Assembly (NCBI GenBank): GCA_001782085.1
Contig: MFNM01000045.1
Location: forward strand, 1-40,061
Direction of reading: 5' to 3'
DNA length: 40,061 nucleotides
From: Candidatus Levybacteria bacterium RIFCSPHIGHO2_01_FULL_37_33
Lineage (GTDB): Bacteria > Patescibacteriota > Microgenomatia > Levybacterales > UBA12049
Both the position numbers and the translations under genes were made by a program. Shown here piece after piece: positions 9,019 through 12,480 of this stretch (position 1 is its first letter; every line of letters starts with the position of its first letter). Below the pieces are notes generated by a model that was not told the origin of the DNA, did no database searches, and saw only the letters and a list, made by a program, of their open reading frames with translations.

Positions 9019-9591
9019 ATGCTTGAACTGATCTTATTGTTAATAATTATATTTTTACTGTTCATTTTGTCGATGGTTTGGCCGCCGAATAGTCCTTGGG
9101 CGCCATGGTGGAGAACAAATAGAGAAACTGCGCGGGCAATTTGCGAATTGGCAGAGATTACAATGTCCGACCTTGTTTATGATCTTGGATGCGGAGATGG
9201 GACATTAATAATCACTGCCGCCAAAGAATACGGAGCAAAAGTTGTGGGAATTGAAATAGATCCTCTGCGGTTTTTAAGTTCGATGATTCGAATCATCTTC
9301 AATGGATTATCCTCAAGAGTTGCTGTAAAGAGGGAAAATTTTTTTAATACGGATTTATCAAAAGCAACAGTGGTAGTAGTGTACCTAATCCCCAAAACAC
9401 TCAATCTTCTCCTGCCAAAATTTAAGAAAGAACTCAAAAAAGGAACTAGGATCGTGAGTTATAAGTATCCACTAAAACTCAAAGTCCAAAAATCCCCACT
9501 TCGCCCCCGCTTCGCCAAGGCTTCGCCGGGCGAGCAAGGCTTCGAGGGGCAAGCAAAAGTCAAAAATAATTTATACCTTTATATTATTTAA
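9019..9591 (+). CDS. Membrane-anchored class I SAM-dependent methyltransferase
   Basis: YDLGCGDG, GIEIDP, VVYL; C-terminus extended by a nested repeat. Confidence 0.85.
   Translation: MLELILLLIIIFLLFILSMVWPPNSPWAPWWRTNRETARAICELAEITMSDLVYDLGCGDGTLIITAAKEYGAKVVGIEIDPLRFLSSMIRIIFNGLSSRVAVKRENFFNTDLSKATVVVVYLIPKTLNLLLPKFKKELKKGTRIVSYKYPLKLKVQKSPLRPRFAKASPGEQGFEGQAKVKNNLYLYII
9494..9553 (+). mobile_element. Nested pair of 30-nt GC-rich miniature elements, in-frame
   Basis: Inner 9505-9534 CCCCGCTTCGCCAAGGCTTCGCCGGGCGAG; outer 9494-9504 + 9535-9553 rejoins to CCCCACTTCGCCAAGGCTTCGAGGGGCAAG (26/30 identical). Confidence 0.8.
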
Positions 9592-10597
9592 GACGTAATA
9601 AAAACCAGCGGAGTTTATCTCCTATTTTATACAGCTCATATAAAATCGGGTTAATTACAAGATCGTAGCTGCCGATGAGCTCAACTAATTCTGCGCCGTA
9701 ACCTTGTTTGAATTTGTGAAAGCCATACCACGGGTCTTTTGGATCAGGATTCGGTCCAAGCGCTCCCCACATATCAAATTTCTTAAGTCCTAATTTTTTA
9801 CCAAATCTTATTGCCTCCCACATAATAAGATTACTCGCCATAGTTTCCCGATGTTGCTCGCTTGATGCGCCATAAGGATAATAGAGTGTATTTTTGAATG
9901 TAAACAGTATCCACGCAACAAGAACCTCAGTTTTATATTTTCCAAGAAGCAAGTGCGCCGTCAGCCGATTTGAATCATGAAGTAGGAATTTTGAATCATG
10001 GTTTTTATTCTTAATTCTTGATTCCTGATTCTTGATTCCTAATTCTTGCCACATTTTTTTATGATAAGCTTGCGTATGGGCGTAAAACCCCTGGCGTTTG
10101 GTAGTTTCATTTGTAAGTTTTAAATAAGTTTTAAATGCCTTGTCCGAATTGTCTTCTACAACTTTTACTCCATGTTTTTGGGCAACTTTTATGTTGTACC
10201 GAGTTTTTGGATGCATATTTTTCAGAAGTTCATCTTCGGATTTGGTCAAATCAAGCTGGAAAGTATATTTAGTAAAAAGAGGATGGAAAGAAGGCCGAAA
10301 GTCTAAATTTGAAATTTGAAATTTGAAATTTGAAATTTGTTGTATGTTTGGTTCAAGCTGAATGAATATACATTTATTCTCTTTACCGATTTTTTTAAGT
10401 TCTTCAATAAGTTTTTTGTCCGGCAAGTTTCCTTTTGGCAGATAACCGATTGTCCACGGAATGTGCGGAATCTTATGGATGGTCAATTGAAAATCTTTTT
10501 CCCTTACGACTTTTACTCCTGTTTTTTCGCGAAACTGTCCCCATTCAAAAGCTTGAAGAGGATGGTTAGCATATTTATTAAAATCTTTCGCGGTCAT
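9584..10597 (-). CDS. FemABX-family peptidoglycan peptidyltransferase
   Basis: HPLQAFEWG, KTRYNI, YPYGAS, FDMWG, GFHKFKQGYG. Confidence 0.9.
   Translation of the reverse strand: MTAKDFNKYANHPLQAFEWGQFREKTGVKVVREKDFQLTIHKIPHIPWTIGYLPKGNLPDKKLIEELKKIGKENKCIFIQLEPNIQQISNFKFQISNLDFRPSFHPLFTKYTFQLDLTKSEDELLKNMHPKTRYNIKVAQKHGVKVVEDNSDKAFKTYLKLTNETTKRQGFYAHTQAYHKKMWQELGIKNQESRIKNKNHDSKFLLHDSNRLTAHLLLGKYKTEVLVAWILFTFKNTLYYPYGASSEQHRETMASNLIMWEAIRFGKKLGLKKFDMWGALGPNPDPKDPWYGFHKFKQGYGAELVELIGSYDLVINPILYELYKIGDKLRWFLLRLK
9972..10045. repeat. Two oppositely oriented degenerate heptamer arrays inside the FemABX gene
   Basis: GAATCAT GAAGTAG GAATTTT GAATCAT, then TTAATTC TTGATTC CTGATTC TTGATTC CTAATTC; encodes ELGIKNQESRIKNKNHDSKFLLHDS. 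Confidence 0.75.
10305..10339. repeat. (AAATTTG)x5 perfect heptamer tandem inside the FemABX gene
   Basis: Five exact copies; encodes QISNFKFQISN. Confidence 0.9.
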
Positions 10598-12480
10598 AGA
10601 AATTCCGAAGGATCATTATTAATAATGTTTAAATTATTAGATAAGACTTTTTCCGGCAACTCCAACACAAAGCGCGAAACGATATTTGAAGTTCTTTGTC
10701 CGAAGAAAAGTCTTTTTCGCGAGTATGTTAAAAATAATCTTTCTTTAGCACGAGTCATGCCGACATAGCAAAGCCTTCTTTCTTCCTCAAGCTCATTTTT
10801 GTCCATAAGACTTCTTGAATGAGGAAAAAGGCCTTCTTCCATACCTATCATAAAAACTATTGGAAATTCCAAACCTTTTGCGCCGTGAAGAGTCATTAAA
10901 TTTACCGCGTCTTTCTTTTCCCCGTTTTTTGGATGGTCAGGCATATATTCCTGTTCAACCAATGCGACATTTTCCAGAAACTCAATAAGATCAGGGAATT
11001 CTATAGCAACCGACCTTAACTCCTTAATATTTTCAAGTCTTGCCCGGTCCTCCTCGTCCCTTTCATCATACAGAGAAAGATAAGCTGTTTTACTCAGAAC
11101 TTTATCCAGAATTTCAAGAGTCGGTATTGTTTCAACCTTTTTTTCTTTGAAATCTTGCGAAAACTCAATAAACTTACTTAACCTTCCCTTGCCCAATTTT
11201 TCTATTCTTTTGTAGGAAACAGTGTCTTTTGGGTTTGCAATAAGTCTTAAGTATGCCAAAACATCTTTTATCTCACGCCTTTCGTAAAATCTTGTTCCGC
11301 CAATTAAAACATATGGAACTCCCTGATGAAGGAAGCCCTCTTCGATTGCGCGAGACTGGGCATTAGTTCTATAAAGAACTGCAAAGTCGGAATAAGAGAG
11401 ACGGGGATCTTGAGACTTAAGCTCAAGAATCTTATTTATTATATATTCTCCCTCATCATGTTCGTTTCGTGATTCATATAAGGCAACATCTTCTCCTTTG
11501 GGATTTTCTGTCCAAAGGTCAAGTACTGGATGGGAGGTGTTTTTGGAAATAACAGAAGATGCGGCATCAAGTATTTTTTGAGTGGACCTGTAATTTTGGG
11601 AAAGAGAAAAAGTTTCAACATTTTTTCCACCAGAGGCGGATCGTCCTTTGGACGAAAAATCCTCTTTAAATTTTGAGAGATTTTGAAAGTCAGCGCCCCG
11701 CCAGGAATAAATGCTTTGGGAAAAATCTCCGACCACGCAGACATTTGGAGATTTATCAAAATCTGAGCCCGAAAGCATTTTTGTTAGAATATATTGCGCA
11801 TGGTTTGTATCCTGATATTCATCAACTAAAATATATTTGAATTTATCTTGGTATTTTTTAAGAACCTGCGGATTTTTATCGAAAAGCTCTATAGTCTTTA
11901 AAATTAGATCATCAAAGTCCAAAGCATCATTTTCCGAAAGAAGCCTTTGATAGATAGGGTATATTCGTGCTACTGTTTCCTGAAAATATCCTTTTGCATA
12001 ATTTAAATATTCAGATGCTGTTATTAATTGATTTTTTGCTTCGGATATCGTTGTTGAAATCGAAGAAGGCTTAAAGTCTTTAGTTGAGATTTCAAGAATT
12101 TTCATTGTCTCTTTTATTGCATCAATCTGATCTTGATCATCATAAATTACGAAATTTTTAGGAATGCCGATATACTGACCCTCAATTCTTAAAATCTTTG
12201 CGCAGAGAGAATGAAATGTTCCTATGGTTACCTGATGCGCATGCAAATGTTTTCCCAAAAGTCGATAAATTCGCTCACGCATTTCGTTGGCAGCTTTATT
12301 AGTAAAAGTAGTTAAAAGAATATTGTCAGGCGAAACCCCTCTATCTATTAAATAGGCTGTTTTATAAACTAAAACCCTTGTCTTTCCAGACCCTGCGCCG
12401 GCTAATATTATGCATGGACCTTCAATATATATTACTGCCTCTTTCTGTTTTTGATTGAGCAAGGATAAATCAAGTGCCAT
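10594..12480 (-). CDS. pcrA: ATP-dependent DNA helicase PcrA/UvrD
   Basis: AGAGSGKT, DEYQD, QSIYSWRGA, NYRST, EERRLCYVGMTRA. Confidence 0.95.
   Translation of the reverse strand: MALDLSLLNQKQKEAVIYIEGPCIILAGAGSGKTRVLVYKTAYLIDRGVSPDNILLTTFTNKAANEMRERIYRLLGKHLHAHQVTIGTFHSLCAKILRIEGQYIGIPKNFVIYDDQDQIDAIKETMKILEISTKDFKPSSISTTISEAKNQLITASEYLNYAKGYFQETVARIYPIYQRLLSENDALDFDDLILKTIELFDKNPQVLKKYQDKFKYILVDEYQDTNHAQYILTKMLSGSDFDKSPNVCVVGDFSQSIYSWRGADFQNLSKFKEDFSSKGRSASGGKNVETFSLSQNYRSTQKILDAASSVISKNTSHPVLDLWTENPKGEDVALYESRNEHDEGEYIINKILELKSQDPRLSYSDFAVLYRTNAQSRAIEEGFLHQGVPYVLIGGTRFYERREIKDVLAYLRLIANPKDTVSYKRIEKLGKGRLSKFIEFSQDFKEKKVETIPTLEILDKVLSKTAYLSLYDERDEEDRARLENIKELRSVAIEFPDLIEFLENVALVEQEYMPDHPKNGEKKDAVNLMTLHGAKGLEFPIVFMIGMEEGLFPHSRSLMDKNELEEERRLCYVGMTRAKERLFLTYSRKRLFFGQRTSNIVSRFVLELPEKVLSNNLNIINNDPSEFL
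11626..11655. repeat. 30-nt double-hairpin element in-frame in pcrA
   Basis: TCCACCAGAGGCGGA + TCGTCCTTTGGACGA; encodes SSKGRSASGG just before NYRST. Confidence 0.75.

Follow-up and report, generated by a model that had tools for sequence, protein, structure and literature searches.

Nested copies of a 30-nucleotide hairpin element in a methyltransferase gene of a Candidatus Levybacteria bacterium

Two nested 30-mers gained precisely in a methyltransferase gene

The stretch of DNA analysed here (the window; 40,061 nucleotides) contains an open reading frame at 9019-9591 for a class I SAM-dependent methyltransferase, in which the PrmA and Methyltransf family models match residues 43-152. After the part of the protein matched by these models, residues 162-181 are encoded by a 60-nt insert that reads SPLRPRFAKASPGEQGFEGQ in frame and without a stop codon, as expected from an earlier note on this DNA that described 20 added stop-free codons. 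The insert consists of two copies of a 30-mer, which we call E, one of which interrupts the other in the layout CCCCACTTCGC / CCCCGCTTCGCCAAGGCTTCGCCGGGCGAG / CAAGGCTTCGAGGGGCAAG. The features of the locus are listed below.

9019..9591, + strand: gene for a class I SAM-dependent methyltransferase of 190 aa (PrmA and Methyltransf family models)
9480..9493, + strand: two degenerate heptamers, CAAAGTC CAAAAAT, directly 5' of E; part of the target, with no duplication
9494..9504, + strand: 5' part (positions 1-11) of the outer E copy; joined to 9535-9553, it is 30/30 identical to L024, L075 and L151
9505..9534, + strand: inner E copy, complete at 30 nt, between outer positions 11 and 12 at the edge of the apical loop; reads PRFAKASPGE
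9535..9553, + strand: 3' part (positions 12-30) of the outer E copy, with the CAAG tail
9554..9567, + strand: two degenerate heptamers, CAAAAGT CAAAAAT, directly 3' of E

Excision of the inner 30-mer (9505-9534) restores the outer one (9494-9504 plus 9535-9553), which matches the excised piece at 26 of 30 positions. This identity, the starting point of the earlier note, was confirmed and proved unique: a 30-base cut can be made in the 60-mer in 31 ways, and only that at 9505-9534 gave a match of at least 20/30. Both 30-mers are C-rich at the 5' end and G-rich at the 3' end, with two CTTCG units in between, again as described, and the 60-mer is much richer in G+C (72%) than the 200 bases on each side (35%) or the window (36%). 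When the nest was peeled stepwise, the outer and inner copies each matched the core at 16/16 positions and the stem at 5/6. The inner copy is identical at 30/30 positions to a copy in another gene of genome G028 (L033) and at 29/30 to a copy in the prolyl-tRNA synthetase (ProRS) gene of G001 (L061), and the outer copy is identical at 30/30 positions to copies in G040 (L024), G002 (L075), and a Levyibacteriota record (L151). Judged from its letters, the window nest is a copy of one subfamily within a copy of another.

Orthologous genes lack E at this site. A protein search with the methyltransferase gave a match in 36 of 41 related genomes (its own included), and none of the 19 best orthologues fetched, whose C-terminal tails were compared, contained the 20-residue insert, which the window protein would join to its flanks in predicted peptides such as ...KVQKSPLRPRFAK... 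In the closest orthologues, 22 residues extend from a conserved KY to the stop codon, and the window tail is also 22 aa long when 20 residues are removed. Because the orthologue tails equal the window tail minus the insert, 60 bases were gained without duplication of the target, in keeping with the earlier remark that no clear target-site duplication was present. The G001 orthologue has a four-unit heptamer array of the same total length at this place, without E, and the G002 orthologue has another short repeat at the E site. Four degenerate heptamers are also present in the window gene, two on each side of the insert, and these matching flanks belong to the target because the empty G001 orthologue holds a four-unit array there. 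A target duplication of 7-13 nt, which the matching flanks had suggested, was thus rejected, as empty orthologous sites hold tandem arrays of the same length.

We also looked for this site in assembled contigs of four metagenome DNA runs. No joined form of 9494-9553, either empty or with a single copy, was present in these contigs, and the sole joint, which in one run skipped 497 nt and had a side of 29 letters, was taken as spurious. Summed contig depth over 9510-9533 was 20-100x that of the flanks, and many contigs matched E alone and continued into unlike sequence, often heptamer repeats.

Other repeats lie downstream in the window, all on the minus strand. A heptamer array of CAAATTT units at 10304-10348 reads NIQQISNFKFQISNL in a FemAB-like ORF (9584..10597) and is of the same class as the arrays in which E lands. 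In the same ORF, an AT-rich run of GAATCAR-type repeats followed by an inverted partner (9968-10033) reads KNQESRIKNKNHDSKFLLHDSN. At about 11626-11655, two adjacent 15-nt mini-hairpins, TCGTCC-AAA-GGACGA and TCCGCC-TCT-GGTGGA, read ..KGRSASGGK.. in a UvrD/PcrA-like ORF (10594..12480); their stems resemble E stems minus the apical part, and they may be collapsed E copies.

E is a family with a covarying hairpin and recurrent classes of target

The genome (849,851 bases in 52 contigs, 37% G+C) contains 8 strong copies of the 30-mer, that of the window included, and weaker ones that bring the number to about 10 overall. Allowing up to two mismatches in a 16-base core, we found 10 matches in this genome and 0 for a reversed control pattern, a result well outside chance, so the further genomic copies that the earlier note had asked for do exist. 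The core is present at the same threshold in 34 of 41 relatives, with 15 matches versus 0 for the control in G001, 17 versus 0 in G011, 15 versus 0 in G028, and 23 versus 4 in G021. Several copies in this genome stand in frame within long ORFs: a Mur-ligase-like ORF (C22:14161-15711) holds two (PSFAKASKGR and SSSAKASGDK), one lies in a C-terminal tail, one lies ahead of a pilin, and the EF-G gene has a degraded in-frame copy. Matches to E in the relatives numbered 54, or 51 once three loci fetched twice were dropped; these 51 unique copies, which include mutual orthologues and are not independent, comprise 33 in the sense orientation in ORFs of at least 120 aa, 6 antisense copies, and 12 outside such ORFs, placing 39/51 within ORFs of this length. 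The dominant reading frame of the ORF copies gives xxFAKASxGx, and the intact frames suggest that in-frame copies are translated.

GC-rich blocks of other kinds occur near some copies. The Mur-ligase-like ORF contains one, ..RGPVKGFLPVDARSSLSSSDELRVAGNPSTFATPRFG.., in addition to its two E copies. A related GC-rich family, CCCGCTTCGC...GCGAGGCGAG, which adjoins or interrupts an E copy, is present in the tail at the C-terminus of an ORF of 340 aa, as 21 nt in G001 (L067, C8) and as a 42-nt block in this genome (G000 C13:16017-16114); both length differences are multiples of three.

Copies from three genomes of the same genus were fetched and mapped onto this genome. Four filled/empty pairs (L057/C12, L061/C25, L059/C16, and L072/C37) differ by 30 nt with no duplication, and orthologous copies are shared at C14, C27, C13, and C25:7905. 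On their own, the filled/empty pairs would fit insertion and precise excision alike. Where tandem arrays occupy empty sites, they match in length the array that surrounds E at the filled site and differ from it identically in every unit, indicating that the arrays are ancestral and evolve in concert. Orthologous E copies are conserved as much as their flanks or more; many copies are therefore old, and constraint may account in part for the identity between copies.

The 30 nt of E form a stem of 6 bp around an apical part that hardly varies (TTCGC-YAAR-GCTTC), followed by a CAAG-like tail of 4 nt; the ends of the element are YCC... and ...CAAG. A scan for the exact core in one genome per species, which required the 16-base core alone and left the stem free, returned at least 122 loci. 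Among the matches listed (127 copies, many phyla), 71 copies have a perfect 6-bp stem (positions 1-6/21-26), 39 have 5/6 pairs, and at least 49 different 5' stem arms occur. In the same 127 listed copies, 92.6% of the paired cells are complementary compared with 76.5% after shuffling, double-sided changes number 194 compared with 59, and 0/500 shuffles reached the observed value of either. Shifting the partner columns by 1-3 lowered pairing to 27-53%. Positions 12 and 15 also covary among the matches listed (C:G 77, U:A 44, other 5), the stem does not extend outward, and each letter of CAAG at tail positions 27-30 is shared by between about half and three quarters of the copies. Stem mismatches of the G:T type (22) equal those of the A:C type (22), and for this reason the active strand cannot be named nor RNA pairing claimed. 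The fold of a canonical copy that covariation supports has an energy of -5.6 kcal/mol, which is unremarkable (z -0.9), and the two window copies, with one stem mismatch each, fold weakly or differently. No Rfam family matched E in a covariance-model search of 20 loci at an E-value of 1 or less, which returned neighbouring tRNAs and one weak, chance-level sRNA outside the element. Inverted doublets of E are present at L084, L133, and L183.

E is not special to this genome or to its phylum, which corrects the first reading of the locus. The groups represented among the matches listed include Patescibacteria, Bacteroidota, Alphaproteobacteria, Verrucomicrobiota, Planctomycetota, Acidobacteriota, Armatimonadota, Babeliaceae, and others. 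Five genomes outside Patescibacteria, each reached through a locus bearing the record title given below, contain 7-31 core matches with at most one mismatch, compared with 0-2 for the control.

Bradyrhizobium, 8.3 Mb: 14 core matches
Brevifollis, 7.6 Mb: 31 core matches
Armatimonadetes, closed chromosome, 4.7 Mb: 18 core matches
Babeliaceae, closed chromosome, 1.3 Mb: 16 core matches
Kiritimatiellia, 3.1 Mb: 7 core matches

In an even sample of 301 Patescibacteria, 133 genomes contain the core, and copy numbers rise to 43 (genome of 1.1 Mb) and 35 (genome of 0.5 Mb); some families have none (0/16 and 0/10 genomes, for example). Searches of plasmid and phage collections by blastn gave matches at chance level only, with E-values of 0.1 or worse.

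Nesting recurs elsewhere. In the distant genome G094 (740 kb, two contigs), nests are present at 7 of 20 fetched loci and include four double nests, with entry after position 18, and the same triple nest at two loci, with entries after positions 18 and 14. Stepwise removal restores complete copies in these nests, and the outermost copies are those found as simple copies in that genome; three intergenic inner copies have 31 bases rather than 30. Across all nests, entry points within E fall after positions 11, 14, 18, and 26, all of them unpaired or at the foot of the stem, and on this basis we propose that a single-strand, structure-directed step would be involved. A second type of nest is found in G001, where a 21-base GC-rich element sits in an E copy just 5' of the CAAG tail and is missing from the orthologous E copy in this genome. 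Six G094 loci (L302, L304, L305, L306, L308, and L309) have direct-repeat flanks common to simple and nested copies, ACAATCTAACCAATCTTCRC 5' of E and YGACAATCTAAYCAA 3' of E, and the repeated unit in G094 seems to be a composite of roughly 70 nt.

Hairpin loops and tandem arrays are further targets. Among the ProRS loci of 30 genomes, that of G001 alone has E, which lies within the loop of a different hairpin; this genome has the hairpin without E, and other relatives have heptamer arrays or nothing in the loop. The ProRS loop is thus an insertion-tolerant hot spot; unrelated heptamer arrays of varied length occupy this surface loop at L250, L252, L256, and L262. Similar cases of E in the loops of other hairpins occur in an Armatimonadetes genome. 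The last 7 bases before E and the first 7 after it match at 5/7 or more positions in 10/50 copies, compared with 2% of random sites, and the 3' flank begins with C in 27/50 copies (19% expected) and with CAA in 12/50 (2.3% expected), as does the 3' flank of the window nest.

The ends of tRNA genes form another class of target. Among the matches listed, 14 of 127 copies border the end of a tRNA gene, at distances of -5 to +4 nt (L084, L094, L100, L102, L131, L133, L135, L137, L149, L184, L186, L191, L192, and L200, from many phyla); 3' ends account for 10 of the contacts and 5' ends for 5. A tRNA-tRNA spacer is occupied exactly by one copy, and three copies whose stem starts with CCA supply the CCA end of the tRNA through a 3-nt overlap. 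Pairs of E copies 0.2-2 kb apart bracket no recognisable gene.

Copies of E are also oriented unevenly, with 35 of 39 core matches in G094 on one strand and four alternating orientation blocks in G068 (a single contig). A strand bias linked to replichores was unsupported, as the G068 blocks resemble gene orientation and not two replichores. Antisense copies carry a Shine-Dalgarno-like AAGGAGG that would be placed in mRNA, and selection may therefore explain the bias.

Candidate mobilisers and competing explanations

The earlier note had called the mobiliser unknown and had named RAYT/Y1 and reverse transcriptase genes as candidates; the checks that it proposed supported neither as the agent, and among the RAYT/Y1, TnpB-type, DUF559, and reverse transcriptase candidates checked we found no mobiliser for E. 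Six PF01797 (Y1_Tnp, RAYT-like) genes are present in this 850-kb genome (C43:24633, C14:5905, C14:20155, C13:11911, C11:9162, and C49:711). The RAYT loci considered, 26 in number, came from four E-rich genomes and this genome; all 22 whose flanks were inspected have flanking hairpins of their own, which differ from E, and a profile scan of the 26 found one weak partial match and one full E copy, the C14 copy, about 150 nt past the RAYT's own hairpin. Y1 genes are present in 24 of 41 relatives, including all eight with at least nine core matches, and are missing from four genomes with 5-8 core matches; one genome with five Y1 genes has no E. Across the 301 Patescibacteria, the possession of three or more E copies is associated with Y1, with an odds ratio of 2.9 (48/23/97/133) that ignores kinship. 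PF01797 had no match in 11 of the 36 Patescibacteria genomes with six or more copies. The genomes without a match include one that is 99% complete in a single contig with 15 copies, as well as G094, which has recent-looking nests yet no Y1 match, and the closed 1.3-Mb Babeliaceae chromosome with 16 copies likewise has no Y1.

At least four of the six RAYT genes in this genome have small hairpins of their own on both sides, such as CCACCTGGGAGGTGG and CACCCCAAGGGTG. One type of RAYT hairpin stands in frame in ProRS, and another fills, in this genome, the site at which G002 has E (L080 versus C21).

Other protein families were also considered. The TnpB-type family (PF07282) matched in 0/5 E-rich genomes and DUF559 (PF04480) in 1/5, and neither is required for E. 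The IS91-type Y2 transposase (PF04986) matched in 0/5 E-bearing genomes, in a search whose control likewise gave no match anywhere. The single reverse transcriptase in the genome belongs to a DGR and is unrelated to E. This DGR lies at about 5800-8550 of C10. Its reverse transcriptase occupies two overlapping frames and is accompanied by an Avd-like four-helix gene and a TR/VR pair, in which the C-terminus of a target ORF matches an A/N-rich template repeat.

Taken as a whole, these observations are probably best explained by nested, non-autonomous copies of the 30-nt E, gained seamlessly through single-strand joining by a trans-acting protein. In outline, a first copy would have entered a loop-coding stretch of heptamer repeats near the 3' end of the methyltransferase gene, and a second, of another subfamily, would then have entered the apical loop of the first, each addition being precise, at 30 nt in coding DNA, and leaving the target unduplicated. 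The protein would recognise the conserved apical part of E in single-stranded DNA and would join the element into unpaired DNA, including hairpin loops (those of other E copies among them), the foot of the tRNA acceptor stem, and tandem arrays, by chemistry resembling the seamless cut-or-copy-and-paste of HUH/Y1 single-strand transposases. Both the single-strand mechanism and the dedicated enzyme are features that we infer. As E has no stop codon in most frames, it would survive in gene-dense genomes as a translated 10-residue loop. The proposal of the earlier note that such units are inserted as discrete mobile elements is supported by orthologues that lack the insert, identical twins, the other filled/empty pairs, and recurrent nesting.

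The origin of the 60-mer within the locus itself, by slippage or duplication or as an ancestral peptide segment, is scarcely tenable. The site does lie in a repeat-prone heptamer stretch, but the parts follow a nested A-A'-B'-B order and not a tandem one, which excludes a single slippage or tandem duplication, and one cut alone restores a copy; moreover, the two layers belong to two subfamilies with identical members elsewhere, and the 19/19 orthologues without the 60-mer refute an ancestral segment. A passive spread of E with no dedicated enzyme, whether by template switching during replication or by ectopic gene conversion over short patches, is unlikely but has several observations in its favour: small E-rich genomes yielded no mobiliser, E is located in fork-stalling repeats and hairpins, entire composites (arrays plus E, double and triple nests) recur as units at several G094 loci, and E copies of two different genes have F-hairpin flanks in common. 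However, one E subfamily occurs in carriers as unlike as an F-hairpin loop, another E, and heptamer arrays, so flanking homology cannot guide E; no microhomology is visible at the junctions; and the apical part is nearly invariant across phyla while the stem is free to vary, as would be expected of a protein recognition site.

We consider it quite unlikely that E belongs with ordinary REP-type elements and owes its movement to the genome's RAYT (Y1 tyrosine transposase) genes. The number of these genes, their presence in every relative with nine or more core matches, the association across Patescibacteria (kinship again ignored), and the compatibility of seamless insertion with Y1 chemistry fit such an origin, whereas the hairpins proper to each inspected RAYT locus, the single full E copy in 26 scanned loci, and the E-rich genomes and closed Babeliaceae chromosome without a Y1 match do not, and E lacks the end tag that is said to define REP superfamilies (PMC3733652). 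Very unlikely, in our assessment, is the retention of the hairpin for a local function, as a tRNA-flanking processing or terminator-like signal or as a structure that hides Shine-Dalgarno sequences, with coding copies as by-products. The tRNA-abutting copies among the matches listed, the filled tRNA-tRNA spacer, the good conservation of orthologous copies, the sense-strand bias, and the stem covariation, which implies selection for pairing, are consistent with such a function. It leaves unexplained, however, the precise gains in unrelated protein genes in all three frames and the nests; no Rfam family matched in the 20 loci, the equality of G:T and A:C mismatches gives no sign of pairing at the RNA level, and a local function does not compete with mobility but could coexist with it.

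Beyond seamless joining by a trans-acting protein, E could be a pan-bacterial, self-targeting mini-element with its own mobilisation system, in which an enzyme outside the known transposase families splices the hairpin seamlessly. This broader reading is possible but doubtful; the enzyme might then be a widespread single-strand DNA-processing protein that reads the invariant apical part of the 30-nt hairpin. If so, E would serve generally to supply the proteins of gene-dense genomes with 10-residue loops and the borders of tRNA genes with hairpins.

E and known small mobile elements

E is among the smallest units whose copy-and-insert behaviour can be demonstrated by sequence alone, and the evidence is unusually clean, with seamless gains in orthologues, identical copies in unrelated genes, and three-deep nests, as well as covariation that separates the part of E that is structure from the part that is signal. 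The element adds translated loops to housekeeping proteins, creates spurious 'hypothetical' peptides, and breaks metagenome assemblies, in which contigs terminate inside it. Very small closed genomes (about 700 kb, 15-40 copies) offer a direct way to test what moves E. Literature searches, with about 1.7 million articles and most subscription journals outside their scope, found no paper when the core sequence was sought in full text and, for CPR/Patescibacteria repeats, nothing on the E family. Very small nesting repeats and in-frame palindromic elements are already a known kind, which also corrects the first reading.

REPs are described as species-specific, extragenic elements that have a tag at one end and flank their own RAYT (PMC3733652, PMC3116915). 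Like REPs and REPINs, E is a short (20-40 nt), G+C-rich imperfect palindrome with dispersed copies and seamless presence or absence, its 6-bp covarying stem being the expected hairpin; inverted doublets also occur, and RAYT genes are present in this genome. Unlike REPs, E is mostly intragenic in Patescibacteria (39/51 unique copies in relatives, in ORFs of at least 120 aa), has an apical sequence that is constant across phyla and a stem that varies, flanks none of the RAYT loci examined, occurs in Y1-free genomes, and has ends (YCC... and ...CAAG) that differ from the tags named in PMC3733652. E thus departs from the REP-RAYT system in its lack of RAYT flanking, its independence of Y1, and its location and end sequences.

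Rickettsia palindromic elements are described as in-frame, translated sequences of about 150 bp that form ten families and are reported from Rickettsia (PMC10969869). E is likewise palindromic and in frame in unrelated protein genes, its translation being predicted from the frames, but differs from these elements in being 30 nt long, present in many phyla, and self-nesting. Classical MITEs derive from an IS and have terminal inverted repeats and a target-site duplication, whereas E shows no duplication at the filled/empty pairs or in the window, and our analysis found no parent IS for it. What sets E apart is its size, its cross-phylum signal with a free stem, its self-nesting, its habit of bordering tRNA genes, and the fact that no known transposase tracks it.

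The small dispersed repeats (SDR) of cyanobacteria, which Elhai et al. reportedly described in 2008, are said to be 21-27 nt long, with signs of mobility, nested insertions, and no known mobiliser; E would be like them in its very small size and nesting and differs in sequence and host group. Elements of the IS200/IS605 type move by 'peel and paste', a seamless single-strand transposition that leaves no duplication and uses hairpin substrates, and IS1397 is said to insert into the loops of REPs. The IS200/IS605-type elements are autonomous and carry a transposase, whereas E has 30 nt, no gene, and no requirement for PF01797 or PF07282. Together with IS1397, they provide our working analogy for E in three respects: seamless joining, hairpin substrates, and hairpin loops as targets.
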